NCBI GenBank assembly: GCA_965652075.1
Contig: CBFGTN010000004.1
Span: 6,775 to 70,774, forward strand
Origin: an uncultured bacterium
Lineage (GTDB): Bacteria; Chloroflexota; Limnocylindria; QHBO01
Length of the DNA: 64,000 bases
Direction: 5' to 3'
Shown: positions 9,827 to 44,584 of the stretch, piece after piece
How the letters are laid out: each line of letters opens with the position of its first letter
Numbering within the stretch: position 1 is the first letter of the stretch
Notes under the pieces: generated by a model
What the model was told of the DNA's origin: nothing
What the model saw: only the letters and a program-made list of their open reading frames with translations
The model's database searches: none
Made by a program: the position numbers and the translations under genes

Positions 9827-9881
9827 CCCTGCCGGCAAGTCCCTAGGCTCCGCCCACTGATTGGCGACGCTGGGGAGACCG

Positions 9882-11549
9882 ATGATCGCGCGACTCCGCG
9901 CTGACGCCGCGCGGTCCCTCGCCGCGTTCCGCGAGGCGATCGCGAACCCGGACATCCGCAACGTCGTCCTCACCGCGACCGCCTTCTTCTCCAGCCGATG
10001 GGCGTTGAACGTCAGCCTGTACGTGTACGCCTACCAGGTCGGCGGCGCCGGCTCGGTGGCCCTGATGGGCGTGATCCAGATGCTGCCGACGGTCCTCGCC
10101 GTCCCGGTCATCACCGGCATGGGCGACCAGTTCCGACGCCAGCGCGTTCTTGCCGTCATCTACGCCGGCGGCGCGGTGGCTGCCGTCTTCCTCGCGCTCG
10201 CATTCCAGGACACCGAGCACGCGGTGTGGGTGTTCATCCTCGCCGGCGTGTCCTCGGCCATCGGGGCCGCTGCCCGCCCGCTGCAGATGGCGCTCCTTCC
10301 GGCGTGTGCGAAGCGGCCCGGCGAGCTCATCGCCGCGAACGTCGTGTGCGGAGCGTCCGACGGCCTCGCCGCGATCTTCGGCCCGGCCGTGGCGGCGGTG
10401 ATTCTGGCCGTCGCTGGGCCCGAGGCCGTCGCCGTGGTCGTGGCCGTCACGCGAGGGGTCGCGGCGCTCTTCGTCATGCGCATCGGTGTGGCGCAGACCG
10501 TGGCGCCGCTCGCCGACCGGAGCTGGAAGCGTCCCGCCACCGTGTTCGGGGCCGCCGGGGACGGGCTGCGGGCGCTCGGGAGCCTGCCGGGTCCGCGGCT
10601 CCTCATCGGCGTGCTCTCGGTTCGGACCTTCGTGCGCGGGATGCTGATCGTCCTGCTGGTGGAGGCCGCGATCGCGGCCCTGCGAATGGGCGAGCCGGGG
10701 GTCGGCACGCTGAACGCGGCGATCGGCGTGGGCAGCGTGGTCGGCGGCATCTTCGCCCTCGGCCTCGTCAGCCAGCCGCGGCTTGCGCCGAGCCTGGCGC
10801 TCGGCCTCATCGGCCGCGGACTGCCGATCCTGCTGATCGGGATCTTCATGGACCCATTCGCCGCGATCGTGCTCCTCGCGATCTGCGGGCTCAGCAACTC
10901 GATCGTCGACACCTCGGCGTACACCCTGCTCCAGGGCACGGTGCCGGACCGGGTGCGGGCGGGGGTCCTTGGCGTCCTCGAGGCCGCGATCGGCCTGACG
11001 GTCGCGGCGGGTGAGATCACCGCACCGATCCTGCTCGATCGTCTCGGCGTCGAGGCGACATTCATCGTCGCCGGCGCCATCCTGCCCGTGGTCACGATCG
11101 GCCTCTGGCCCCTGCTGCGCCGTCTCGACGACCAGGTCCTCCCGCCGCGCGAGCTGCTGCGGCTGCTCAAGGGCGTCCCGATGTTCGAGCCGCTGTCGCT
11201 GGCGGTGATCGAGCAGCTGGCCGGCGGGATGCAGGTTGTCACATACGCGAAGGGCACCGAGATCATTCGCCAGGGAGAGGCGGGCGACGCGTTCTATCTC
11301 CTCATCGACGGGTCGGTCGAGGTGATCCGAGACGGAACCCACGTCGACGCCATCGGCGCCGGGGGGTCATTCGGCGAGGTGGCGCTCATCAGCGGAGAGC
11401 CGCGCAACGCGACCGTGCGCGCGACCGCGGACTGCCGCCTGTATCGGCTCGACGCCGCGACGTTCCTGTCGGCCGTGACCGGGAACCCCCACAGCCAGGC
11501 CGCCGCCGATCGCGTCGCCGGCGAGCGAGGGTGGGCCGGCCGAGCCTGA
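9882..11549 (+). CDS. MFS transporter fused to a C-terminal cyclic-nucleotide-binding (cNMP/CAP-effector) domain
   Basis: About 12 TM helices, then a cNMP-binding beta-roll (GEAGDAFYLLIDGSVEV...GAGGSFGEVALISGEPRNATVRA). Start taken at the ATG at 9882, downstream of the tracked TTG at 9861. Confidence 0.75.
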   Translation: MIARLRADAARSLAAFREAIANPDIRNVVLTATAFFSSRWALNVSLYVYAYQVGGAGSVALMGVIQMLPTVLAVPVITGMGDQFRRQRVLAVIYAGGAVAAVFLALAFQDTEHAVWVFILAGVSSAIGAAARPLQMALLPACAKRPGELIAANVVCGASDGLAAIFGPAVAAVILAVAGPEAVAVVVAVTRGVAALFVMRIGVAQTVAPLADRSWKRPATVFGAAGDGLRALGSLPGPRLLIGVLSVRTFVRGMLIVLLVEAAIAALRMGEPGVGTLNAAIGVGSVVGGIFALGLVSQPRLAPSLALGLIGRGLPILLIGIFMDPFAAIVLLAICGLSNSIVDTSAYTLLQGTVPDRVRAGVLGVLEAAIGLTVAAGEITAPILLDRLGVEATFIVAGAILPVVTIGLWPLLRRLDDQVLPPRELLRLLKGVPMFEPLSLAVIEQLAGGMQVVTYAKGTEIIRQGEAGDAFYLLIDGSVEVIRDGTHVDAIGAGGSFGEVALISGEPRNATVRATADCRLYRLDAATFLSAVTGNPHSQAAADRVAGERGWAGRA

Positions 11550-16601: not shown

Positions 16602-17300
16602 GTGGCCGGCACGATCATGATCGTCGAGGACGAGCCCGCCGTCGCTCGCGGCGTGCAGGTGGCGCTCGAGCGCGAGGGCTACGACGTGAGCGTTCAGCCC
16701 ACCGGCGAGGACGCGATCGCGAACTTCGCCGATGCCGCGCCCGACCTCGTGGTCCTCGACGTGCGCCTGCCGGGGATCGACGGCTTCGAGGTCCTGCGCC
16801 AGCTCCGCCGCGACACGCGGGCACCGGTCCTCTTCCTCACGGCGCGCGCCGACGAGGTCGACAAGGTCGTCGGACTCGAGATGGGCGCGGACGACTACCT
16901 CGTCAAGCCGTTCAGCGTCCGCGAGCTCGTGAGCCGCATCAAGGCCCTCCTGCGCCGCGCGTACGGCGAGCTGGCGGATACCCAGACCGGCCGCACGCTC
17001 CGACGCGGCGACCTCGTGATCGACCTCGAGCGGCGGCGCGTCACGCTAAGGGGAGAGCGCATCGGCCTGACCACCACCGAGTTCGACCTCCTGCGCCACC
17101 TCGCCTCGCGGCCGGGACGGGTGTACACGCGTGCGCAGCTCCTCGAGCTCGTCCGTGACTACGACGACGCGCTCGAGCAGGACGAGCGGACGATCAACGT
17201 CCACATCAGCCACATCCGCGACAAGGTCGAGCCCGACCCGTCGCAGCCGCGCTACATCCGGACGGTGCGGGGCGTCGGCTATGCCTTCGCCGAGGACTGA
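16602..17300 (+). CDS. OmpR-family response regulator (MprA-like)
   Basis: Receiver domain (IMIVEDEP...DLVVLDVRLPGIDGF...KVVGLEMGADDYLVKPF) plus a winged-helix output domain (RYIRTVRGVGY). Confidence 0.9.
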   Translation: MAGTIMIVEDEPAVARGVQVALEREGYDVSVQPTGEDAIANFADAAPDLVVLDVRLPGIDGFEVLRQLRRDTRAPVLFLTARADEVDKVVGLEMGADDYLVKPFSVRELVSRIKALLRRAYGELADTQTGRTLRRGDLVIDLERRRVTLRGERIGLTTTEFDLLRHLASRPGRVYTRAQLLELVRDYDDALEQDERTINVHISHIRDKVEPDPSQPRYIRTVRGVGYAFAED

Positions 17301-18885
17301 CAGGCCCGCGTCGTCGCGGTCGACACCGGACTGGTCGACCTTCGACCCGCGCGGCCTGCCGGCGCTCGCCAGCCGGCTGAACGTCCGCCTCGTCCTCGCC
17401 CTCGTGACGGTCACGCTGGTCGGACTGATCACGTCGGGCATCGCGATTCAGCAGATCCTGCCGGGCTTCTTCGCGGAACAGACCGAGCAGCGGATCGATA
17501 CCGCCGCTGCTTCTGCCGCGTTCTCCCTTCAGGGCGCGGTCACACGCGTCGGTAACGACCGACAGACGCAGGCGACGGCGCAAATCCGCGAGCTCCGTGA
17601 CTCGCGCATTGCGCCAGAGGTTGCGCTCCAGGCCGCCCGCCAGTTCGGCGCGACGGTCACCGTGATCAACGACCTGGGCGCGACCGTGACCCGCGCGGTA
17701 CCGCCGAACACGGATGAGCTCGAGGCCCAGGGTCTTCGGCGCGACACCGAGGCCGGACCCGCGCAGCGCCGCGTCGACATCGAGCTGCCTGACGGACAGG
17801 TGGTCAGCTATCGGATCGTCGTGAGCGACCTGTACTCGACGCGGGAGGCGACGCTGGAGCAGATCCGCAGCGCGCTCATCGGCGCCGGGATCCTGGCGCT
17901 CGGCGCCTCCCTGGCGACCGGCGTGGTCGCCGCGCGGAGCCTGACGATCCCGATCGCTCGGCTGCGCCGCGTCGCCGGGCGCGTCGCGCAGGGCCAGCTC
18001 GACGAGCGGGCGGCGCGTTCGGGAGTGCTCGAGATCGACGAGCTCGGTCAGCAGTTCAACGTCATGGCCGACAGGCTCTCGGGAACGCTGCGCATGGTCG
18101 AGGCGGATCGCGACCGGCTCCGCGAGTTCGTCGCCGATGTCAGCCACGAGCTGCGCACCCCGATCGCCGCGCTGCGGATGTACACCGAGCTCCAGCGAGA
18201 CGGCGACGTGGACGAGACGACGCGCCGCGAGTTCCTGGATCGCTCGCTCGACCAGATCCAGCGCCTCGAGTGGTTGAGCACGAACCTCCTCGACCTCTCG
18301 CGCATCGACGCCGGCATCTACCCGCTCGACATGCGCGAGGGCGACTTGCGGGACCCCGTGCAGGCCGTCGTCCAGGCGCTGAGCGAGACGTCGGTCGAGC
18401 ACGGCGTGGCGCTCGCGTCGGAAGTGCCCGGCGAGCCGGTCGAGATGCGCTTCGACCGCGAGCGGATCGTGCAGCTGATGACCAACCTCATCGGCAACGC
18501 GATCAAGTTCACCCCGCGCGAGGGAGCCGTATCGGTTCGGGTCGAGGAGCGCGCGGACGACGTGCTGATCGAGGTGCGGGACACCGGCGCCGGCATTCCG
18601 GCGGACGAGCTGCCGCACATCTTCGAGCGGTTCTACCGCGGGACGAACACCGGCGAGGCGCGCGCGTCGGGTAGCGGGCTCGGGCTCGCGATCGTGCGGT
18701 CGATCGTGGAGATGCACGACGGCCAGATCGAGATCGCCAGCGAGGTCGGCACGGGTACGCAGGTCCGGATCACGCTGCCGCGGCACCCGGCGGACGCGCG
18801 AGAGCCGACGGCGGAGGCGAGCGAGAAGGTCAACGAAACTTCACGCGGCGCGCAGGCTGCGCGCAATCCTGGGACCGTAGGGTGA
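17281..18885 (+). CDS. Sensor histidine kinase (MprB-like; TM–HAMP–HisKA–HATPase)
   Basis: Contains the H-box VSHELRTPIAA, an N-box IGNAIKFT and G-boxes RDTGAGI/GSGLGLAIV. The ATG at 17281 overlaps the response-regulator stop by 20 nt. Confidence 0.85.
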   Translation: MPSPRTDRPASSRSTPDWSTFDPRGLPALASRLNVRLVLALVTVTLVGLITSGIAIQQILPGFFAEQTEQRIDTAAASAAFSLQGAVTRVGNDRQTQATAQIRELRDSRIAPEVALQAARQFGATVTVINDLGATVTRAVPPNTDELEAQGLRRDTEAGPAQRRVDIELPDGQVVSYRIVVSDLYSTREATLEQIRSALIGAGILALGASLATGVVAARSLTIPIARLRRVAGRVAQGQLDERAARSGVLEIDELGQQFNVMADRLSGTLRMVEADRDRLREFVADVSHELRTPIAALRMYTELQRDGDVDETTRREFLDRSLDQIQRLEWLSTNLLDLSRIDAGIYPLDMREGDLRDPVQAVVQALSETSVEHGVALASEVPGEPVEMRFDRERIVQLMTNLIGNAIKFTPREGAVSVRVEERADDVLIEVRDTGAGIPADELPHIFERFYRGTNTGEARASGSGLGLAIVRSIVEMHDGQIEIASEVGTGTQVRITLPRHPADAREPTAEASEKVNETSRGAQAARNPGTVG

Positions 18886-18901
18886 AAGGTGCCCGCCCGG
18901 C

Positions 18902-20212
18902 GTGGCAACCCGCAGCAGAAGCGACGACCGACCGATGAACGACCACAACCAGCCCGACGATCCCGACCGGACCCAGCCGGTCGAGGTGCAGCGATACGGC
19001 CCACCGGTCCAGCGCGACCCGGCCGACACCCCATGGCAGGCGGCGCCCGCATGGTCGACGCGACCGCCCGAGACTGCGCCGCCGCCGGCGCGGACCAAAC
19101 GCGGCCTGGGCGCTGCGCCGATCATCGCGATCGCGGTCGTTGCGGGGCTGCTGTCCGGCGCGCTCTCCGCGTTCGGCGTGGCGACCCTGCTCGACGATGG
19201 CCCTGCCGGAGCGGTCACGGGCCAGAGCACCGATGCGAACACCGTCAGCGACGTCACGATCGACGAGTCGAGCGCGGTCATCCAGGCCGCCGACGCCGTC
19301 GCTCCAGCTGTCGTCACGATCGTCCGCACCAGCGGGAACGTCTTCGGCGACCAGACCGGATCGGGATCCGGCTTCATCTTCGACTCCGACGGCTACATCC
19401 TCACCAACCGACACGTCGTCGAGGGCGCGGACCAGCTGATGGTCGTCCTCAACGACGGCCGCCAGTTCGACGGCACCGTGTACGGGATCGACACCCTCAC
19501 CGACCTGGCGATCGTCACCATCGACGCCACCGACCTGCCCGTCGCGCCGATCGGCAGCTCCGCCGATCTGGAGCCCGGTCAGCTGGCGATCGCGATCGGC
19601 AACCCGTTGGGCACCTACCAGAACACGATCACGACGGGCGTCGTCTCCGGCCTCGGCCGCCAGATCCGCGCGTCGGACGCCTCGCAGACGAGCAGCGAGC
19701 AGCTGAACAACCTGATCCAGACCGATGCGGCCATCAATCCGGGCAACTCCGGCGGCCCGCTCGTCAACAGCGGCGGCCAGGTCATCGGGGTGAACACCGC
19801 CGTGAACACCGAGGCGCAGGGCATCGGCTTCTCGATCCCGATCGACGTCGCGAAGCCGATCATGCAGCAGGCGCTCGATGGCGCCGAGCTGGCTCGACCG
19901 TGGATCGGTGTCTACTACGTGCCGATCACCCCGGCGCTCCAGGAGCAGCAGGACCTTCCGGTTGACTACGGCGCGCTGATCACGACCCAGAACGGGTCAG
20001 CGATCTTCCCGGACAGCCCGGCCGACGCGGCCGGACTGCAGGACGGCGACATCATCGTCGCCATCGACGGCGACCAGATCGACCCGGGAGCGGACCTCTC
20101 ATCGCTCCTGCTCGACCACGCGCCGGGCGACACGATCACGCTCCGGATCCTGCGCGACAACTCGACGAGCGAGGTCGAAGTGACGCTCGGAGAGCTTCCC
20201 GACACCCGCTAG
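18902..20212 (+). CDS. HtrA/DegP-family serine protease with a C-terminal PDZ domain (PepD-like)
   Basis: Has a TM anchor, a catalytic His (LTNRHVV), an Asp, and the Ser motif GNSGGPL. The PDZ domain is at the C-terminus. An alternative start is the ATG at 18935. Confidence 0.85.
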   Translation: MATRSRSDDRPMNDHNQPDDPDRTQPVEVQRYGPPVQRDPADTPWQAAPAWSTRPPETAPPPARTKRGLGAAPIIAIAVVAGLLSGALSAFGVATLLDDGPAGAVTGQSTDANTVSDVTIDESSAVIQAADAVAPAVVTIVRTSGNVFGDQTGSGSGFIFDSDGYILTNRHVVEGADQLMVVLNDGRQFDGTVYGIDTLTDLAIVTIDATDLPVAPIGSSADLEPGQLAIAIGNPLGTYQNTITTGVVSGLGRQIRASDASQTSSEQLNNLIQTDAAINPGNSGGPLVNSGGQVIGVNTAVNTEAQGIGFSIPIDVAKPIMQQALDGAELARPWIGVYYVPITPALQEQQDLPVDYGALITTQNGSAIFPDSPADAAGLQDGDIIVAIDGDQIDPGADLSSLLLDHAPGDTITLRILRDNSTSEVEVTLGELPDTR

Positions 20213-20230: not shown

Positions 20231-20614
20231 TCAGCCGAGGCGGCGCCGGAACAGCGCCGCCTCGACCGTGTCCAGCTCCCCGTCGAGCGGCGCCTCGGGC
20301 TTGCGCACCCGGACCTCGACCGCGTCGACGACCGCGGGGTCGGTTGCCGCGAGCACGGCCCGCGCGATCGCCCCGGCAAGGGCCTCGATGAGGTCGAACG
20401 ACGGCCCGGTGACGATGGCGCCGACGAGCTCGTGCACGGCCGAGTAGTCAACCGTGTCGGCGAGGGCATCGCTCTCGGCCGGTCGCGAGAGGTCGGCGTG
20501 CAGGACGACGTCGACCTCGAACGGCTGCGGCTCGACCTTCTCGTGCGCCAGGACGCCGTGGCGCGCGGAGAATCGCATGCCCAGCAGCGAGAGGCGGTCC
20601 GGAGCGTCGCTCAT
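20231..20614 (-). CDS. folB: Dihydroneopterin aldolase
   Basis: 127 aa (MSDAPDRLSLLGMRFSARHGVLAHEKVEPQPFEVDVVL...). The start overlaps the folP stop (ATGA). The longer tracked ORF is an R/G-rich artefact. Confidence 0.85.
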   Translation of the reverse strand: MSDAPDRLSLLGMRFSARHGVLAHEKVEPQPFEVDVVLHADLSRPAESDALADTVDYSAVHELVGAIVTGPSFDLIEALAGAIARAVLAATDPAVVDAVEVRVRKPEAPLDGELDTVEAALFRRRLG

Positions 20615-21462
20615 CGGCGCACGACCGCGTCGGCGATGCGGCGCGTCCGCGCGATGTGGGCGACGTCGTGAACGCGCACGATGTCCGCCCCGGCCGCGAC
20701 GGCCAGCGCCACGGTCGCGGCGGTCCCCTCGACACGGTCGTCCGCCGAGGCGCCGTCGAGCAGCTCGCCGATGAATCGCTTGCGGCTCGTTCCGATGAGC
20801 AGTGGCAGGCCGTCGAGCGCGGCCTTCAGCTCCGCGAGCCGATGCAGGATCTCGAGGTTCTCCGCGGTGCCCTTGCCGAAGCCGATGCCGGGGTCGACGA
20901 CGATCCGGTTCCGGTCGACACCACGCGCCACGGCGTCGTCGACCGCCGTCCTCAGCCACGAGACGACGGCGTCGAAGACGCCGTTCGGGTAGTCGATCTC
21001 CTCCTTGTTGTGCATGAGCACGAGGTACGTCCCGGCCTCGGCCGCGGCCGTCGCCGTGCCCGGATCGCGCGTCGCGGCCCACACGTCGTTGACCATCCGC
21101 GCCCCCGCGGCGATGGCTCGCGCAGCGACCGTGCCCTTCGAGGTGTCGATGCTGACGATCGCGCGGTCGCCGAGCGACGACGCGATCGCGGCGATCACCG
21201 GCACGGCGAGGGCCGCTTCGCGTTCGTCGTCGACCGTGGGGCGGTCGCCGTAGGCGTTCCGCGGCCGCGTCGATTCCGCGCCGACGTCGATGATCTCGGC
21301 ACCCGACGCGACGAAGCTCGCCGCCTGCTCAACGGCCGCAGATACGACCTCGTCGATGTCGCGGTCGGGGATCGCGAGACCGTCCCCGGAAAATGAGTCG
21401 GGCGTCACGTTCACGATGCCCATGACGTAGGTGCGTGCGCCCCACGTGAGATCCGGTGCCAT
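20611..21462 (-). CDS. folP: Dihydropteroate synthase
   Basis: Pterin-binding barrel motifs (IVNVTPDSFSDGG, DIIDVGAESTRP, DTSK, GIGFGK). Start trimmed to MAPDLTWGART.... Confidence 0.9.
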   Translation of the reverse strand: MAPDLTWGARTYVMGIVNVTPDSFSGDGLAIPDRDIDEVVSAAVEQAASFVASGAEIIDVGAESTRPRNAYGDRPTVDDEREAALAVPVIAAIASSLGDRAIVSIDTSKGTVAARAIAAGARMVNDVWAATRDPGTATAAAEAGTYLVLMHNKEEIDYPNGVFDAVVSWLRTAVDDAVARGVDRNRIVVDPGIGFGKGTAENLEILHRLAELKAALDGLPLLIGTSRKRFIGELLDGASADDRVEGTAATVALAVAAGADIVRVHDVAHIARTRRIADAVVRR

Positions 21463-22775
21463 CAGCTTTCCTCGGCCGTTCCGGCCAGCATGCCGCGAAT
21501 CGCGCCCACGAGGTAGAGGGAGCCGGCGACGACGACGGGGTCGGCGTCGGCCGCCATCGCCAGCGCGGCGCCCGGGTCGGACGCAGTCCGGCTCCGCTCC
21601 CCGGAGACACGTCGCCAGGCGCGCGCCAGCGATGCCGGCTCGCGGGCGCCGGGGTCCGCGACCCGGGTGAACACGAATCTCGGCTTCAGCGGCGCGAGCG
21701 CGCGCAGCGCGGCGTTCACTCGCTTCGTGCGCATCGCGCCGAAGATGATCGTCGGGCGGCGGAGGCCGAGGTCGTCGAGTGCCTCCGCGAGGGCGGCGGC
21801 GCCGGCCGGGTTGTGCGCGCCGTCCAGCAGGACCCTCCGCAGGCCGGCGGGCCGCCCGTCGAGCACCTCGAGGCGGCCGGGCCAGCGGGCGGCTGCAAAC
21901 CCGTGGCGAAGCTGCTCTTCTTCGACGCGGACGCCCCAGCGCTCGGCCAGCGCATCGATCACGCCGAGCGCCACCGCCGCGTTCTGGGCCTGGTGCCGGC
22001 CGAGCAGTCCGACGCGCAGCCCGTCGAGCCGCCGCGTCGGGGTCCGGGCGTCGACGACGATCCCATCCCATCCGGTCTCGCGCAGCGCGGCGCGGTACGG
22101 CTGCCGCGGACCGGCGCGCCGGAGCGGCACGCCGAGCGCCTGGGCGCGGGCGACGATCGGTCGAAGGCCGCGGCCACTGGCCCCCGTGACCGCCAGGTTG
22201 CCGGGCTTGATGATCGGGGCCTTCTCCCCGCCGATCGCGGTGAGCGTCGGCCCCAGGATCGCCTCGTGATCGAGCTGGACGTTCGTGATCGCCGCCACGC
22301 CGAGGTCGAGGACGTTCGTGGCGTCCAGGCGGCCGCCGAGCCCGACCTCGACGATCGCGAGGTCGACGTCCAGCCGCGCGAGCTCACCGATCGCGGCCGC
22401 GGTCAATGCCTCGAACTCGGTCGGCGGGCCGATCTCGGCCGCGACGCGGTCGATCGCCGGCAGCGCCCGCTCGACGGCGGCGGCGAACGCCCCCTCGCTC
22501 AGTGGGCGGCCGCCGACCGCGATCCGCTCGCGGTAGCTCACCAGGTGCGGCTTTGGCATCGTCCCGACCCGGAGGCCGGCGGCACCCAGGACCGAGGCCG
22601 TCATCGCGACGACCGAGCCCTTGCCATTCGTTCCCCCCACGAGCGCCCCGCGCAGGCCTCGCTCGGGATGACCCGTGACCTGCAGCAGGCGTTCGACGCG
22701 CTCGAGCCCGAGGCTGATGCCGAACCGGCCGCGCTCGGTGAGGGCCGCCACGGCCTCGGGGTAGGTGAGGGTCAA
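21462..22775 (-). CDS. folC: Bifunctional folylpolyglutamate synthase / dihydrofolate synthase
   Basis: P-loop GTNGKGS, a Mur-ligase-like fold and FolC motifs. It overlaps the folP start by 1 nt. Confidence 0.85.
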   Translation of the reverse strand: MTLTYPEAVAALTERGRFGISLGLERVERLLQVTGHPERGLRGALVGGTNGKGSVVAMTASVLGAAGLRVGTMPKPHLVSYRERIAVGGRPLSEGAFAAAVERALPAIDRVAAEIGPPTEFEALTAAAIGELARLDVDLAIVEVGLGGRLDATNVLDLGVAAITNVQLDHEAILGPTLTAIGGEKAPIIKPGNLAVTGASGRGLRPIVARAQALGVPLRRAGPRQPYRAALRETGWDGIVVDARTPTRRLDGLRVGLLGRHQAQNAAVALGVIDALAERWGVRVEEEQLRHGFAAARWPGRLEVLDGRPAGLRRVLLDGAHNPAGAAALAEALDDLGLRRPTIIFGAMRTKRVNAALRALAPLKPRFVFTRVADPGAREPASLARAWRRVSGERSRTASDPGAALAMAADADPVVVAGSLYLVGAIRGMLAGTAEES

Positions 22776-22779
22776 GCCG

Positions 22780-23337
22780 TCAGTCCGACGCGTCCTCGTA
22801 GAAGACGCAGTCGTTGAACTGGCCCGTCAGGCACAGGTCGTTGACGTAGCCCGAGTCCAGGTGCACGCCACCGCGCAGCTCGCACCGGGCCACCGTGCCC
22901 TCCTGCTTCATGAGCGTCCGCATCAGCTGCGGCGCCTGGATCGGGATGCGCCCCTTCGACCCGTGGGTCAGGTAGAAGTGCGGGCAGTGGTGGCGGCGCG
23001 GCTTCGTGTAGCCGAGGGGCACGCCGCGCCTGCCGACGTGGACCGCCATCGGCTCCGGGCTGCCCGCGTAGCGCTTCTCCGCGATGATGCAGCGCCCCGG
23101 CTCGCACTCCTTGTCGTTGTAGCAGCAGGCCCGGGCCGGACCGATGCCCTCCACCGCCCACAGCTCCCAGCACGGGCGACGCAGGATGAAGGCGGGGCAT
23201 CGGTAGCGGATCGTGAGGTCGCAGTTCTCGACCTCCCAGCACATCGTGCGGCGATCGCCGCCACGGCGATCGGGAGCGAACGGGTCCTCCGCCTGACGCC
23301 TGTCGGCGCCGCCGCGGCGCTCGGTCTTGATGATCAT
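22780..23337 (-). CDS. Cysteine-rich hypothetical protein (12 Cys, two C-W motifs, N-terminal DRR repeats)
   Basis: 185 aa with an atypical low-GC amino-acid composition (I, K, Y, F, N), which argues it is real coding sequence. Motifs include MCWEVENC, RCP, PCWELW, ACC, ECEPGRC, HHCPHF, and two ...DRR... repeats at the N-terminus. Its stop is 4 nt from the folC start, on the same strand. Confidence 0.6.
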   Translation of the reverse strand: MIIKTERRGGADRRQAEDPFAPDRRGGDRRTMCWEVENCDLTIRYRCPAFILRRPCWELWAVEGIGPARACCYNDKECEPGRCIIAEKRYAGSPEPMAVHVGRRGVPLGYTKPRRHHCPHFYLTHGSKGRIPIQAPQLMRTLMKQEGTVARCELRGGVHLDSGYVNDLCLTGQFNDCVFYEDASD

Positions 23338-23451
23338 GGGCGCTCGGGCAGCCTTCTCACGCGCCGGAGTGTAGCGGGTGCTCTCGGGCGCAGGCCGAAG
23401 GAAGAGGTGCGCGCCGTCACCGGGGCGCAGACGCAGGTCGGCAGATCCGGG

Positions 23452-27591: not shown

Positions 27592-27767
27592 GGCGCGCCA
27601 TTCTAGCCGCGGGTACGCAACTTGCTCCCTCGCCGGAGGACCGCCACGGCGGCCAGCCAGCAAAGTACGAGGAGGCGCGTCCGATGCCGGACCGGCAGAG
27701 TGCCGACCAGGACGGAGCCGCACGATCTGGGACCCGCGACCGCAACGAGCCGCCCAGTGAGGGCGGC

Positions 27768-27992
27768 ATGAGCGTCCGCGACGCCGGCCGCAAGGGCGGC
27801 AAGACCACCCGCGCCCGGTACGGGACCGAGTTCTTCCAGGAGATCGGGGCGAAGGGCGGCCGAACGGTCAGCGAGCGCTACTCGAACGAGCACTTCCGAG
27901 AGATCGGCCGCAAGGGTGGGAAGCGCGTCGCGGAGCTCATCGCGCGGGCCAAGCAGCTCGACGAGGCGAGCGAGGTTCAGAACCCGGAGTAG
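27768..27992 (+). CDS. KGG-repeat general stress protein (YciG-like)
   Basis: Three repeats of the G(R/A)KGG(K/R)T motif (GRKGGKTT, GAKGGRTV, GRKGGKRV). Start trimmed to MSVRDAGRKGG. Confidence 0.6.
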   Translation: MSVRDAGRKGGKTTRARYGTEFFQEIGAKGGRTVSERYSNEHFREIGRKGGKRVAELIARAKQLDEASEVQNPE

Positions 27993-28627: not shown

Positions 28628-30358
28628 ATGCCCCCGCGCTCGACCCCGTTCGCCGCGCTGGCCGAGACCGCTGCGGCGGTCGGCGCGACCCGCAGCAAGA
28701 ACGCGAAGCGCGACATCCTCGCGGCCTACCTCCGCGGCCTTCCGCCCGCTGACCTGCCGGCGGCGACGGTCTTCTTTGCCGGCCGGCCGCTGATCGACCC
28801 GACGGCCAAGCTCGGCCTCGGCTGGGTGCAGCAGGGTGCGGCGCTCGCCGCGGCCAGCGGGGCCGGGCAGGATGCGCTGCGGGCGGCGTACCTGCGCCAC
28901 TCGGACTTCGGCGACGCCGCCGCCGACCTGGTCGCGTCGGGCGACGGCGCGCCGCTGACCGTCGCCGACGTCGCGAACGGATTCAGCGCGATCGCGTCGG
29001 CGGGGTCCGCCGCGGACCGCGTGACGCGGATGACCGAGCTGTACCGGCGAGCCTCCACCGAGGAGGCGCGCTTCATCGGTCGCGTCGCCTCGCGCGAGAC
29101 CCGCATCGGTCTCCGGGAGGGCCTGCTCGAGGAGGCCGTCGCCACGGCCTTCGACGCCGAGCCCGATGCGGTGAGGCGAGCGCACATGCTGACCGGGGAG
29201 ATCGGCGAGACCGCCGTGCTGGCTCGCGATGGACGCCTCGCCGAGGCCGCGCTGCACGTCGGGCGGCCGATCCGCTTCATGCTCGCGTCACCGGTCGCGG
29301 ACGCCGCCGAGGTCATGCGCCGGGTCGGCGACGAGGCGTGGATCGAGGACAAGTACGACGGCATCCGCGCCCAGCTCCACCTCGAGGAGGGCGGTACGCC
29401 GAGGCTCTTCAGCCGCGACCTGAACGACGTCACCCGCTCGTTCCCGGAGATCGTCGATGCCGCCGGTGCCCTGGCGACCGATGCGCCGCTCGTGATCGAC
29501 GGCGAGCTCGTGCCGTGGCGCGAGGGCTCCGTCCTCGACTTCGCCTCGCTCCAGACCCGGCTCGGCCGGGTCCGGCCCTCGAAGGAGCTCCTGGCCGAGG
29601 TCCCGGTCGTGCTCGTCGCCTTCGACCTGCTGCATCATGCCGGGCGCGATCTGCTCGAGCGGCCGCTCCGCGAGCGACGCTCGGCCCTCGACGCGCTTGG
29701 GCTGCCGGAGCGGACCGGCGAGCGGGTCCTTCGCTCGCACCTTGCATCCGCGCGCTCGGCGGCCGAGGTCGACACCGCGTTCGACGATGCGCGCGATCGG
29801 CACAACGAGGGGCTGATGGTCAAGGATCCGGATTCGACCTATCAGCCCGGCCGTCGGGGGCTCGGCTGGCTGAAGCTGAAGAAGGCGCTCGCAACTCTCG
29901 ACTGCGTCGTCGTCGGCGTCGAGTGGGGCCACGGCAAGCGCCGCGGCGTGCTCAGCGACTACACGTTCGCCGTGCGCGAGGCCGATGAGCCGGAGTCGCG
30001 GCTGCTGACGATCGGCAAGGCCTACACCGGGCTGACCGATGCGGAGATCGCCCGCATGACCGACTACTTCCACACCGTGACGCTCCAGGACTTCGGCCGC
30101 TACCGGACCGTGGTGCCGGAGGTCGTCGTCGAGATCGCCTTCGACCGGATCATGCGGTCGAGCCGTCATCGATCCGGCTTCGCGATGCGCTTCCCGCGGA
30201 TCGTCCGCATCCGGGAGGACAAGACGCCGGCCGAGATCGACACGCTGGCGACCGTCGAGGCGCTCTTCGGCGAGCAGGCATCGGGCCGCATCCTGCTCGC
30301 GACCGGCGCGCGTGGCGAGACCGAGCGCATCGCGGCCATCGGATCCGGCGACGAGTGA
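28628..30358 (+). CDS. ATP-dependent DNA ligase (LigB-type: N-terminal DNA-binding domain + adenylation + OB)
   Basis: Motif I EDKYDGIRAQ (KxDG), motif III/IV region LMVKDPDSTY, motif V GVEWGHGKRRG and motif VI, on a 576-aa three-domain layout. Confidence 0.85.
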   Translation: MPPRSTPFAALAETAAAVGATRSKNAKRDILAAYLRGLPPADLPAATVFFAGRPLIDPTAKLGLGWVQQGAALAAASGAGQDALRAAYLRHSDFGDAAADLVASGDGAPLTVADVANGFSAIASAGSAADRVTRMTELYRRASTEEARFIGRVASRETRIGLREGLLEEAVATAFDAEPDAVRRAHMLTGEIGETAVLARDGRLAEAALHVGRPIRFMLASPVADAAEVMRRVGDEAWIEDKYDGIRAQLHLEEGGTPRLFSRDLNDVTRSFPEIVDAAGALATDAPLVIDGELVPWREGSVLDFASLQTRLGRVRPSKELLAEVPVVLVAFDLLHHAGRDLLERPLRERRSALDALGLPERTGERVLRSHLASARSAAEVDTAFDDARDRHNEGLMVKDPDSTYQPGRRGLGWLKLKKALATLDCVVVGVEWGHGKRRGVLSDYTFAVREADEPESRLLTIGKAYTGLTDAEIARMTDYFHTVTLQDFGRYRTVVPEVVVEIAFDRIMRSSRHRSGFAMRFPRIVRIREDKTPAEIDTLATVEALFGEQASGRILLATGARGETERIAAIGSGDE

Positions 30359-31777: not shown

Positions 31778-32248
31778 ATGTCCAACCACATTTCCGCCAG
31801 CGTCGACCCCATCACGTGTCGGGTCGATGCCCGGACGGACACCGGCCATGCCATCCCGATGGAGCTCGACGAGCCCGACGGCCCGAACCCTGTCGAGGCG
31901 CTGCTCGCGTCGCTCGCCGGATGCACGGGGATGGACGTCGCCAGCATCCTGCGCAAGAAGCGCCAGGACGCCGCCACGTACGAGATCGTCGTCGACGGCG
32001 ATCGCGCCGATGAGCATCCGCGCGTGTTCACCGCGCTGCGCGTCGAGCATCGGGTGAGCGGCAGGGTGGAGCCGGAGGCGCTCAGGCGCTCGATCGAGCT
32101 GTCGGCGACGAAGTACTGCCCGGTGAGCGCGATGCTCTCGGCCGTGGCGCGCGTCGAGCATCGCTACCACCTGGTCGACGAGGATGGCCACGAGCACGAG
32201 TCCGTCGTTGCGGTGCTCGGTCCCGGCGAGCGGCGTCCCCCGGCCTAG
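31778..32248 (+). CDS. OsmC/Ohr-family peroxiredoxin-like protein
   Basis: OsmC-fold motifs (PNPVEALLASLAGCTGMDV...LSATKYCPVSAML) with the conserved Cys pair. Confidence 0.8.
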   Translation: MSNHISASVDPITCRVDARTDTGHAIPMELDEPDGPNPVEALLASLAGCTGMDVASILRKKRQDAATYEIVVDGDRADEHPRVFTALRVEHRVSGRVEPEALRRSIELSATKYCPVSAMLSAVARVEHRYHLVDEDGHEHESVVAVLGPGERRPPA

Positions 32249-32652: not shown

Positions 32653-32783
32653 CGACGCCAAGTGTCGCCTCGGTGCCGATCGTGGTCTATGGCCCATCCG
32701 CGTAGTACCGATGGTCACGGGTGGGGGACCCTTGGAGCGCCGGTGTACCCTTCGGAGCCTCAGTACGGGAGCACGGCACGCAC

Positions 32784-33689
32784 ATGGCGCGATCGATGTG
32801 GCGGGGAGCAATCCAGTTCGGCCTGGTCACGATCCCGGTCAAGCTCTACCTGGCGACCGAGCAGGGCGGGATCGGCTTCAACCTCCTCCACCGCACCTGC
32901 CTGAACCGCATCCAGATGAAGGTGTACTGCCCGCATCACGACGAGGTCATCCCGCGCTCGGAGACGGTGCGTGGATACGAGTACAGCAAGGGCAAGTACG
33001 TCGTCGTCGAGGACGAGGACATCGACTCCGTGCCGCTCAAGACGGTCCGCGCGATCGAGATCGAGCTCTTCATCAACGCCTCGCGCGACGCGGAGGGCGT
33101 GCAGTTCGTGAAGCAGGCCTACTACCTGGAGCCTGAGCAGATCGGCGCGAAGGCGTTCTACCTGCTGAAGTCGGTCCTGGCCGAGCAGAACAAGAGCGCC
33201 ATCTGCAAGATCGTCCTCAAGGACCGCGAGCAGCTCGCATCGCTCAACCCCTTCGCGAAGACGATGCTCCTCACCACGCTGCACTGGCCCGATGAGGTCC
33301 GCGCCGTCGACGAGCTGAACCTTCCCGAGGACGAGATCGAGATCAAGGCGTCCGAGAAGAAGATGGCCGAGCAGCTCGTGGCCAGCATGACCGGCGACTT
33401 CGACGCCAGCGAGTACGCCGACGACTATCGCGAGGCGCTGATGGCGGTCATCGAGAAGAAGGTCGCCGGCGAGAAGCCGGAGCCTGCCGCGCGCGCCGAG
33501 CCGACGAACATCACCGACCTCATGGCCGCGCTCGAGGCCTCGGTCGCGGCAGCGCGCCAGGACCGCAAGGCGGAGCCTGCCGAACCGACGAAGGCCAGGG
33601 CGAAGCCGGCGCGGGCGAAGTCGACCAGGACCAAGAAGGCCACCGAAGAGGCGGAGGCTCCGCGGCAGCGGCGCCGCAAGACCGCCTGA
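32784..33689 (+). CDS. ku: Ku protein (non-homologous end joining) with a basic C-terminal tail
   Basis: MARSMWRGAIQFGLVTIPVKLYLATE... and YEYSKGKYVVVEDEDI are a typical bacterial Ku core. It ends in a Lys/Arg/Ala-rich tail. Start trimmed to the ATG at 32784. Confidence 0.9.
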   Translation: MARSMWRGAIQFGLVTIPVKLYLATEQGGIGFNLLHRTCLNRIQMKVYCPHHDEVIPRSETVRGYEYSKGKYVVVEDEDIDSVPLKTVRAIEIELFINASRDAEGVQFVKQAYYLEPEQIGAKAFYLLKSVLAEQNKSAICKIVLKDREQLASLNPFAKTMLLTTLHWPDEVRAVDELNLPEDEIEIKASEKKMAEQLVASMTGDFDASEYADDYREALMAVIEKKVAGEKPEPAARAEPTNITDLMAALEASVAAARQDRKAEPAEPTKARAKPARAKSTRTKKATEEAEAPRQRRRKTA

Positions 33690-43144: not shown

Positions 43145-43241
43145 AAGAGACGACAGGGGAGCGCCACCGCGCTGAGAGTGCGACGTCCGGAACGTCGCAG
43201 ACCCTCGAACCTGATCCGGGTCATGCCGGCGAAGGAAGTCG
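43145..43241 (+). promoter_or_regulatory. TPP (THI-box) riboswitch
   Basis: CAGGGGAGCGCC...GCTGAGA...ACCCTCGAACCTGATCCGGGTCATGCCGGCGAAGGAAG matches the THI-element consensus (CUGAGA, ACCC...GAACCUGAUCYGGNUNAUGCCRGCGNAGGGAA). The 3' GAAGGAAG doubles as the SD for the ATG at 43242. Confidence 0.8.
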
Positions 43242-43991
43242 ATGCAGCCCGTCGCGGCGCGCCTCATCCCCGGTCGACCTGACCGGACCCGGCGCGCCGT
43301 CGTCGTTCTCGCGGACATCTGGCCGATGGAGGAACCGATGCGGATCGTCGTCGTCGCGTCCGGCGCGCTGGCTCCGGGCGACGAGGCACGGCTCGACGGG
43401 GCAGACGCGGTCATCGCCGCCGACGGCGGTGCCGCCGCCCTCGACCGGCTCGGCCGGCGGCCGGACCGAATCGTCGGCGACCTCGACTCGGCGGAGGCCA
43501 CCCTCGTCGAGCGGCTCGAGGCCGCCGGCGTCCGGATCGATCGGCACCCGGTGGACAAGGAGGCGTCGGACACCGAGCTGGCCGTGCGCGCCGCCATCGC
43601 CGATGGGGCGGCTCGCGTCGACATGCTCGGGGCGACGGGCGGCGATCGCCTGGACCATGAGCTGGCGAACATCCTGCTGCTCGCGGAGCCGGAGTTCGAC
43701 ACGGTCGAGCTGCGGGCGATCGTCGGTCCGACGACGGTCCGCCGGCTGCGAGGCGGCGGGGCGATCACCCTCGACGGCAGCGTCGGCGACCTCGTCACGC
43801 TGCTCCCGATCGGCGGCGACGCTCGGGGCGTCACGACGGGCGGCCTGCGCTGGCCGCTCGACGGGGCGACGCTGCCAATGGGCGGCTCGCGCGGCCTGTC
43901 GAACGTCATCGTCGAGCCGGGCGCATCGGTCCGGCTCCGCGAGGGGGTGCTCCTCGTCGTCGAAACCGCACCCACGGGAGACCACACATGA
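43242..43991 (+). CDS. thiN: Thiamine pyrophosphokinase
   Basis: TPK motifs AADGGA, IVGDLDS, KDASDTELAVRAA and GATGGDRLDH. It is the first gene after the TPP riboswitch. Confidence 0.75.
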   Translation: MQPVAARLIPGRPDRTRRAVVVLADIWPMEEPMRIVVVASGALAPGDEARLDGADAVIAADGGAAALDRLGRRPDRIVGDLDSAEATLVERLEAAGVRIDRHPVDKEASDTELAVRAAIADGAARVDMLGATGGDRLDHELANILLLAEPEFDTVELRAIVGPTTVRRLRGGGAITLDGSVGDLVTLLPIGGDARGVTTGGLRWPLDGATLPMGGSRGLSNVIVEPGASVRLREGVLLVVETAPTGDHT

Positions 43992-44584
43992 CCACCACCT
44001 CGGCCGGCCGCGACCACGGCTGGCGCACCGTCGACATCGTCGTCGCCGCGGGCATCGCCGTCGCCTTCGGCGTCGTCTTTCTGCTTTGGAATGCGATCGC
44101 CGCGTTCACGACGCCGGCGTTCGCGTTCTTCCCCCCGGCCCAGGCGGTCCTCAATGGCCTCTGGCTGCTGCCCGCCGTCCTCATCGGGCTCATCGTCCGC
44201 CTCCCGGGCGCGGCGTTCTTCGGGGGCTTCGTCTCGGCCGCGGTGTCGGTCCTGCTCGGATCCCTGTACGGCGTCGACGCCCTCGTCTCGGGGCTGGTGC
44301 AGGGTGCCGGCGCGGAGATCGGGTTCGCGCTCGGTCTCTATCGGCGCTGGAACCTGCCGTTCGCGATGCTCTCCGGCGCGCTGTCCGGCGTTGCGGCGAC
44401 CCTTCACGACGTGCCGCTCTACTACGTCGGCGCGGGCGCCGACGTATGGCTCGTGTACCTGGTCGCATCGGTCGCCAGCGGCGCGATCGTGGCGGGCCTT
44501 GGCGCGTGGCTGCTCGTTCGCGCCCTCGTGCGGACCGGCGTCCTCCGCGACTTCGCGGTCGGTCGCGACCAGCGCCCGGTCTGA
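43988..44584 (+). CDS. ECF transporter S (substrate-capture) component, thiamine/HMP-type (YkoE-like)
   Basis: About 6 TM helices over 198 aa. ATGA overlap with thiN. Lies in the riboswitch-controlled ECF operon. Confidence 0.65.
   Translation: MTTTSAGRDHGWRTVDIVVAAGIAVAFGVVFLLWNAIAAFTTPAFAFFPPAQAVLNGLWLLPAVLIGLIVRLPGAAFFGGFVSAAVSVLLGSLYGVDALVSGLVQGAGAEIGFALGLYRRWNLPFAMLSGALSGVAATLHDVPLYYVGAGADVWLVYLVASVASGAIVAGLGAWLLVRALVRTGVLRDFAVGRDQRPV

Follow-up and report, generated by a model that had tools for sequence, protein, structure and literature searches.

A conserved 12-cysteine protein encoded ahead of folC, folP and folB in Limnocylindria, with a possible role as a metal-cluster sensor

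Limnocylindria (formerly Ellin6529) are abundant, uncultured Chloroflexota of soil and freshwater. We examined a 64,000-nucleotide stretch of DNA from one such bacterium (GTDB lineage QHBO01; assembly GCA_965652075.1, contig CBFGTN010000004.1, positions 6,775 to 70,774; hereafter the window), in which the minus-strand open reading frame (ORF) at 22780-23337 encodes a 185-residue product, here termed X, immediately ahead of the folate genes folC, folP and folB. The ORF is a genuine gene under strong purifying selection, and is predicted to open a transcription unit of its own, X-folC-folP-folB, an arrangement that is kept in all of the 80 best-matching GTDB loci. From the conservation pattern of its cysteines we tentatively propose, with somewhat less than even confidence, that X is an iron-sulfur or zinc cluster-binding sensor or regulator co-expressed with the folate enzymes, and not itself a folate enzyme.

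Results

Gene X encodes a conserved, cysteine-rich protein

The X reading frame begins with ATG and ends with TGA at 22780-22782. Its product contains 12 cysteines (residues 33, 39, 47, 56, 71, 72, 78, 83, 118, 152, 169 and 177) and, near its N-terminus, two arginine-rich repeats, RRGGADRR (residues 7-14) and RRGGDRR (residues 24-30). A preliminary description of the locus, made by inspection of the window, had reported the 185-residue length, the 12 cysteines with their motifs (MCWEVENC, RCP, PCWELW, ACC-x5-C-x4-C, HHCPHF, RCE, LC and DC) and the two DRR repeats exactly as they are found here. It had also called the amino-acid composition atypical, being rich in I, K, Y, F and N, and this holds in part: lysine (3.2%), tyrosine (3.8%) and phenylalanine (2.7%) stand at about twice their level in the five neighbouring genes compared, save for the small thioredoxin, which matches or surpasses X in K and F content, whereas isoleucine (4.9%) and asparagine (2.2%) are not raised, arginine (12.4%) and glycine (9.7%) are still high, and the gene does not depart from the window in its nucleotide composition (about 70% GC). 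The feature that stands out is cysteine, at 6.5% of residues against 0-1.6% in the neighbours, accompanied by histidine (six residues, 3.2%) and by the high arginine content.

GC contents at the three codon positions (0.65, 0.51 and 0.95 for GC1, GC2 and GC3) resemble those of genuine neighbouring genes. A relative is present in at least 558 GTDB species genomes, and the best-matching 80 loci were analysed in detail; across these the median ratio of nonsynonymous to synonymous substitution rates (dN/dS) relative to the window sequence is 0.16, and 94 of the 185 positions are invariant. The GC3 value, the dN/dS ratio and the database homologues together identify X as a real gene. The contrary view, that a spurious, non-coding ORF has arisen here in a high-GC genome, has in its favour the many long spurious ORFs that overlap this region on both strands; set against the GC3 of 0.95 in the X frame, the low dN/dS, at least 65 protein homologues with identities down to 22%, and a conserved promoter-like element and Shine-Dalgarno sequence upstream, its probability is negligible, and the conservation data already refute it. 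The preliminary description had allowed that the frame might prove untranslated or unconserved; conservation was found instead, in all 80 loci.

X heads a compact folate operon

The genes and signals surrounding X in the window are as follows.

20231-20614, minus strand: folB (dihydroneopterin aldolase); PF02152 FolB in the orthologue, colinear in the GTDB loci
20611-21462, minus strand: folP (dihydropteroate synthase); Pterin_bind in the orthologue, colinear in the GTDB loci
21462-22775, minus strand: folC (dihydrofolate synthase / folylpolyglutamate synthase), TTG start; TIGR01499 (E = 9e-92), Mur_ligase_M and Mur_ligase_C
23352-23358, minus strand: Shine-Dalgarno-like GAGAAGG, 14 nt 5' of the X ATG, read from the sequence
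23368-23375, minus strand: -10-like element GCTACACT, with the TACACT hexamer at 23368-23373, 30 nt upstream of the X start codon
23452-23838, minus strand: thioredoxin (WCGPC); PF00085 (E = 2e-28), start codon uncertain, an internal ATG giving a product of about 108 residues

The spacing within this block is very tight. The X stop codon is separated by the 4-nt gap originally reported from the folC TTG at 22775, the folC stop codon and the folP ATG share 1 nt, and folP and folB share 4 nt (ATGA). No terminator-like site was found on the operon strand within the operon. Upstream, the thioredoxin gene (trx) lies 114 nt from X, and a PASTA Ser/Thr kinase gene lies beyond it. The order trx-X-folC-folP-folB is colinear in all 80 of the best GTDB loci, as far as their contigs reach, and in two further contigs; folC follows X in 80 of 80, and a thioredoxin match precedes it in 79, the exception (L029) having only 335 nt of sequence upstream of X. 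Extrapolated distances between X and folC in the orthologues run from -8 to +52 nt. Within this conserved block X is itself the most conserved product, with a mean identity of 86.5% compared with 81% for thioredoxin, 70% for FolC, 68.5% for FolP and 68% for FolB; in 50 of the 57 loci that allowed all five proteins to be compared, X takes first place.

The spacer between trx and X contains a single conserved element, GCTACACT, the remainder of the aligned spacers not being conserved. The form NNTACACT is found 24-38 nt (mode 29) 5' of the X start in 74 of 81 orthologous loci, and the hexamer is closely confined to this position: both strands of 768 kb of orthologous loci contain just 79 copies of TACACT, 74 of them being at X. 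The GC that flanks the hexamer in GCTACACT is conserved too, and orthologous loci carry GGAGG at the place equivalent to the Shine-Dalgarno-like sequence of the window. Elements of the TAnnnT type are established as -10 elements of high-GC bacteria, and we read GCTACACT as a probable -10 element of this type, with a short leader and then a GGAGG-type Shine-Dalgarno sequence downstream of it. If transcription begins just downstream of TACACT, the 5' untranslated region of X is only about 25-30 nt long. The element may also exceed a generic -10 role, for example as a binding site. It emerged only from comparison of loci, a scan for the sigma-70 consensus promoter having returned nothing in this high-GC DNA, and searches with Rfam gave no riboswitch or leader RNA near the locus upstream of X. 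In four loci that lack TACACT, the trx stop codon and the X start are only about 25-30 nt apart, and in these trx may be co-transcribed with X.

Because of this conserved promoter-like element in the trx-X spacer, X is predicted to be the first cistron of its own unit, with a spacing to folC that would allow translational coupling; strand, lack of a terminator, coupling distance, upstream motif and synteny all place it within the operon. The earlier suggestion that X is the first gene of the folate operon is thus borne out by the -10-like element, by the tight gaps and overlaps and by a gene order kept in 80 of 80 loci, and the recurrence upstream of folC that the preliminary description had proposed looking for is seen in these Limnocylindria loci and in a second clade described below.

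The folB end of the operon is flanked in the window (16602-20212) by genes for an OmpR-type response regulator, a HAMP histidine kinase and an HtrA-like protease (18902-20212), the homologue of the last having Trypsin and PDZ domains in L001. This regulator, kinase and protease arrangement is also kept in L001 and L002.

X comprises two unrelated cysteine-bearing domains

Alignment of the family divides X into four segments.

23245-23337, minus strand: residues 1-31, Arg-rich N-terminal tail MIIKTERRGGADRR...DRRGGDRRT, with two RRGG(A)DRR repeats
23068-23244, minus strand: residues 32-90, N-terminal 8-Cys domain, two-CW-like, C33-W-x4-C39-x7-C47-P-A-x6-C56-W-E-L-W-x10-C71-C72-x5-C78-x4-C83
23002-23067, minus strand: residues 91-112, linker of variable length and sequence in alignments
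22783-23001, minus strand: residues 113-185, C-terminal 4-Cys domain, RRHxC118PHFY...RC152xLRGGVHLxxGYVxDxC169...C177VFYED

All 12 cysteines are kept in each of the 80 close sequences. Among distant homologues, at 22-35% identity, eleven cysteines (C33, C47, C56, C71, C72, C78, C83, C118, C152, C169 and C177) and three tryptophans (W34, W57 and W60) are invariant, and the twelfth cysteine, C39, is not lost but relocated in one clade, where a cysteine three residues before C47 creates a CxxC motif. The C-terminal domain retains its four cysteines in every relative, along with invariant or nearly invariant R151, R155, H159 and Y164. Cys-Pro pairs are found at C47 and C118, and also after the last cysteine of the N-terminal domain in several distant homologues. 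Because eleven cysteines are invariant at such identities and one has moved, the cysteines of X appear to behave as metal ligands; a ligand set that is kept with one of its members shifted is the classical signature of metal coordination, with eight candidate ligands in the N-terminal domain and four in the C-terminal domain.

Comparison of the two domains with hhalign gave no sign of an internal duplication, and the domains are unrelated. AlphaFold2 reached a predicted local distance difference test (pLDDT) score of about 70 only at residues 121-150 of the C-terminal domain, predicted as beta-beta-alpha, and gave no structure for the Arg-rich tail (residues 1-31). Across the family this tail has the consensus MIIKTERRxGxDRR...RRxxDRRTMCW, and distant homologues also show a hydrophobic stretch followed by (D/E)RR motifs at the N-terminus. 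Two candidate assignments for the tail of X were rejected, namely a twin-arginine translocation signal, there being no hydrophobic h-region after the RR motifs, and a PilZ-type RRxxxR motif, the spacing of which varies across the family.

X matches no known family, and resembles the two-CW domain below threshold

Scans of X against Pfam, NCBIfam and PADLOC, and of 18 X homologues against Pfam and NCBIfam, returned nothing significant. Sequence searches of the PDB with X and with profiles of the whole family, the N-terminal domain and the C-terminal domain found no relative, a match to ObiF1 at E = 1.4 being taken as noise. The preliminary description had looked to a Foldseek search with a predicted structure for an assignment, and this did not materialise: the better AlphaFold2 model (pLDDT 47) gave no match in the PDB below E = 1.5 and was discarded. 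For the C-terminal domain no known relative appeared in any of the searches run, and in the library searched we found no paper on the two-CW domain, on folate in Limnocylindria, or on a Cys-rich protein associated with folC, folP or folB.

The sole database signal is a sub-threshold alignment of the N-terminal domain with two_CW_domain (NCBIfam NF045718), so that the earlier hint at two-CW families was well chosen. Of the 19 family members that were aligned, two match this model (P0096 at 7.6 bits and P0107 at 7.4 bits, against a cut-off of 35), and the window protein does not match it even at E <= 10; by the curated cut-off X is not a member of NF045718. The family has two invariant CW motifs and eight cysteines in this region, and the weak alignments (7.4-7.6 bits) span positions 2-74 of the 80 in the model, taking in the entire 8-Cys module of P0096 and P0107. 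The likeness lies in the order of residues, CW...C...C(P)A...CW...C(C)...C..C, and in the general character of a Cys/Trp-rich module for which, likewise, no solved structure was found. X differs in its additional CC pair, its Arg-rich tail and its separate 4-Cys C-terminal domain. Two-CW domains sit at the N-terminus of signalling proteins. A search for two-CW proteins with a profile of the N-terminal domain alone, covering E-values up to 10, gave only four matches, all of them fragments of the X family.

Other comparisons are by analogy or by genomic position. The WhiB-like (Wbl) [4Fe-4S] proteins of Actinobacteria are, like X, small, cytoplasmic, Cys-ligated proteins of high-GC Terrabacteria with a basic tail, and the analogy would make a role as a redox-sensitive partner of the transcription machinery plausible. 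However, neither X nor its 18 homologues match Whib (PF02467) at E <= 10, the 8 + 4 cysteines of X are unlike the C-xn-C-x2-C-x5-C of Wbl proteins, the G[V/I]WGG turn is missing, and the basic tail is N-terminal in X but C-terminal in Wbl proteins. X occupies a position in the fol operon in which FolE, FolK/HPPK or PTPS/QueD often occur, but it is Cys-rich, is built of two small domains and has homologues outside folate contexts; it matches none of the FolE, HPPK and PTPS models (PF01227, PF01288, PF01242, or their NCBIfam equivalogs), in agreement with the initial judgement that it is not FolE, FolK or QueD. Groups of four conserved cysteines and Cys-Pro pairs recall ferredoxins and zinc ribbons, but X has neither the CxxCxxCxxxCP motif nor paired CxxC knuckles, and no Fer4 or zinc-ribbon Pfam match was obtained for X or the 18 homologues.

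The family is small, and its folate linkage appears lineage-specific

The relatives found in GTDB all belong to metagenome-assembled genomes (MAGs) of Chloroflexota / Ca. Limnocylindria. A search of 5.8 billion proteins gave 65 matches, of which the 36 full-length ones (71-92% identity) are all annotated as hypothetical and likewise come from Chloroflexota / Ca. Limnocylindria MAGs. An exhaustive hidden Markov model search of 1.84 billion cluster representatives returned only 91 proteins at E < 0.001, of which the 34 that were read are all members of the X family or frameshifted copies of them. X thus represents a small, unannotated family, amounting to about 90 of the 1.84 billion clusters formed at 50% identity. 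A degenerate-DNA scan of metagenomes yielded 120 loci, only five of them true homologues.

Three layers can be distinguished. The full-length Limnocylindria form includes the window protein. In a sister clade conservation is limited to the C-terminal ~75 residues, which follow a Pro/Ala-rich N-terminus; this C-domain form likewise lies directly upstream of folC-folP-folB, overlapping folC by 4 nt, with a FolC that is 49% identical to that of the window. The third layer consists of the distant full-length homologues at 22-35% identity, which keep all the Cys ligands, and near which no fol gene was found in the 5-7 kb flanks examined in seven contexts. These contexts are varied. In one distant clade (223-242 residues) the gene is monocistronic; it is bordered on one side by either a CCA-adding-enzyme/RecG pair or a hydrolase, and on the other by a CheW-MCP-CheA cluster together with a divergent TPR gene. 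The P0096 gene is located 3' of a KR-ACP-KS-KS-KS-AT cluster, P0138 has yet another neighbourhood unrelated to folate genes, and the gene for P0099 (196 residues) shares its strand with dnaA, from which it is separated by 21 nt on the upstream side (both within L100 3055-5096). Members of the P0117 clade follow MoxR-DUF58-transglutaminase in L101, with a zf_Tbcl zinc-ribbon gene about 200 nt 3' of X (L101, L136, L146, L175 and L208) whose product reads VSFVDKALRCRECxRDFVFT...CPEC. Given this variety, the folate link appears to be lineage-specific, confined to Limnocylindria and the sister clade and, as judged from the loci compared, absolute there.

Two observations concern the distant homologues themselves. 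The adjacency of P0099 to dnaA, if recurrent, would tie the X family to replication initiation. P0096 and P0138 occur on separate contigs of the same two samples, ERZ27247713 and JGI 3300031749 (L098/L099 and L011/L012), and could be paralogues in one organism.

Databases also contain apparent X-FolC fusion proteins of 260-640 residues (P0113, P0114, P0116, P0119, P0127, P0130, P0134, P0135 and P0141), which we rejected as candidates. These are frameshifted reads from X into FolC: the shifts fall inside the 4-Cys domain, high-GC frames without stop codons let the reading run on, and in the clade with overlapping genes the shifted X frame is the folC frame. Because the shift sites differ between entries, these proteins are artefacts of assembly or of indels.

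Discussion

A putative metal-cluster sensor

We propose that X would be a small cytoplasmic protein with a Cys-ligated metal cluster, most likely iron-sulfur and alternatively Zn(Cys)4, and would work as a sensor or regulator responsive to redox, oxygen or iron status. Cys-Pro pairs, dispersed spacing and a CC pair suit iron-sulfur sites better than they suit classical zinc knuckles, and for this reason iron-sulfur is favoured. The 12 cysteines would provide about three four-ligand metal sites, with the N-terminal module acting as sensor and the C-terminal module as output, the latter assignment being made because the C-terminal domain is the sole part kept upstream of folC in the sister clade; the basic tail may contact nucleic acid or an acidic partner. 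Co-expression would link the synthesis or activity of the folate enzymes, or the operon of X itself, to redox or iron status. In an alternative form of the proposal X would be a regulatory partner of the folate enzymes. The varied contexts of the distant homologues point to a general regulatory or sensor module rather than to a pathway enzyme.

Several results weigh against this proposal. None of the searches linked X significantly to a characterised sensor or regulator, no recognisable DNA-binding domain was found in it, and its two-CW similarity is far below threshold. AlphaFold2 gave models too poor to use, with pLDDT 43 from a 39-sequence alignment and 47 from a 78-sequence alignment, and the spacer alignment shows no conserved operator-like repeat near the X promoter. 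A stoichiometric protein partner would be just as compatible with the very high conservation of X and its close coupling to folC, and the cysteines could form a metal-free thiol/disulfide switch instead. The metal- or redox-sensing role is one that we infer from the conservation of the cysteines, and the DNA-binding and partner roles are putative. With this qualification, the metal- or redox-sensing factor of the preliminary description is the most reasonable reading left.

Alternative explanations

An explanation that we consider unlikely, while giving it real weight, is that X is a housekeeping protein with a structural metal, probably zinc, which binds a core machine, for example RNA polymerase, the ribosome or the replication initiator, and that its position ahead of folC is a lineage-specific accident unconnected with folate. 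X is more conserved than the enzymes that follow it, its distant homologues stand beside growth-essential genes (21 nt upstream of dnaA) or alone, and its Arg-rich tail would suit such a role. However, an accidental position is difficult to reconcile with an X-folC junction kept in 80 of 80 Limnocylindria species, and the second clade, in which only the C-terminal domain is shared, with a 4-nt overlap and a FolC 49% identical, is hard to explain by chance; moreover the lone CxxC-type knuckle is absent from the window clade and the other cysteines are dispersed, which is unusual for structural zinc. It is less probable still that X, or at least its 4-Cys C-terminal domain, takes part in pterin/folate synthesis, either as an iron-sulfur enzyme or accessory subunit replacing a step that the operon does not encode (HPPK/FolK, dihydroneopterin-triphosphate pyrophosphatase or dihydrofolate reductase, for example) or as a subunit of FolC, FolP or FolB. 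Its place as a translationally coupled first cistron, the absolute synteny in two clades and a conservation that suits a stoichiometric partner all speak for such a component, and neither the operon nor the 20 other window genes scanned showed folK, folE or folA. Yet the full-length homologues keep every cysteine in seven unrelated contexts with no fol gene in the flanks examined, the domains are small (about 60 and 70 residues), and no similarity to any enzyme family was found, all of which weakens the unrecognised pterin-pathway component that had been suggested at the outset.

The adjacent thioredoxin gene raises the further possibility, which we judge marginally more doubtful than a pathway component, that X is a metal-free thiol/disulfide switch, a substrate or partner of that thioredoxin whose activity is gated by cysteine oxidation. 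A WCGPC thioredoxin is encoded directly upstream in 79 of 80 GTDB loci, four loci have a trx-X gap of only about 25-30 nt and no promoter motif, and the 12 cysteines include a vicinal CC pair. In contrast, the C-terminal-only clade and all distant homologues lack a thioredoxin neighbour, trx and X are usually separate units with a conserved promoter-like element between them, and the strict invariance of 11-12 cysteines arranged in fours is more typical of metal sites; the thioredoxin may merely keep ligand thiols reduced. A more specific proposal, which appears to us the least probable of those entertained for a translated X, is that the C-terminal domain is a new iron-sulfur/redox module that acts on the Limnocylindria folate pathway and has the 8-Cys two-CW-like module as its sensor; it would serve FolC, FolP or FolB as a regulatory or electron-transfer subunit, or would supply a step that the operon does not encode.

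Other features of the window

Elsewhere in the window, a thiamin pyrophosphate (TPP) riboswitch is predicted on the plus strand with 63 bits, above the gathering score, its 3' end overlapping the called start of the next gene. The organisation of this region suggests a thiamin salvage and uptake operon. A second group of genes looks like a desiccation or stress neighbourhood, in which an ATP-dependent DNA ligase and Ku, i.e. non-homologous end-joining genes, are accompanied by an OsmC-like protein and a KGG/LEA_5 stress protein. These features are as follows.

9861-11549, plus strand: major facilitator superfamily transporter with a fused C-terminal cyclic-nucleotide-binding domain
27684-27992: KGG/LEA_5 stress protein
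28628-30358, plus strand: ATP-dependent DNA ligase
31778-32248: OsmC-like protein
32721-33689, plus strand: Ku
43145-43254, plus strand: TPP riboswitch
43242-43991, plus strand: thiamin pyrophosphokinase, directly 3' of the riboswitch
43988-44584, plus strand: ABC_cobalt/ECF-type permease component, overlapping the thiamin pyrophosphokinase gene

Implications

The best-conserved gene of the Limnocylindria folate operon thus encodes a protein with 12 invariant cysteines, no family assignment and no usable structural model. Its operon position was looked at, and is present, in the 80 best-matching species, and a relative occurs in at least 558 species genomes. On the evidence of its cysteines, the family would belong to the broad class of small Cys-ligated metal-binding proteins, to which it brings two new Cys-rich modules, and, as a clearly delimited target, it lends itself to expression, metal analysis and the mapping of partners. 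If X is a component of the pathway, pathway reconstructions and auxotrophy predictions for Limnocylindria would change. If the C-terminal domain acts on the folate pathway, this would amount to redox-gated folate synthesis in a major uncultured soil group, and would provide a first functional handle on two-CW-type domains. If X is a metal or redox sensor, as we tentatively favour, it would represent a new coupling of one-carbon cofactor supply to redox or iron status.

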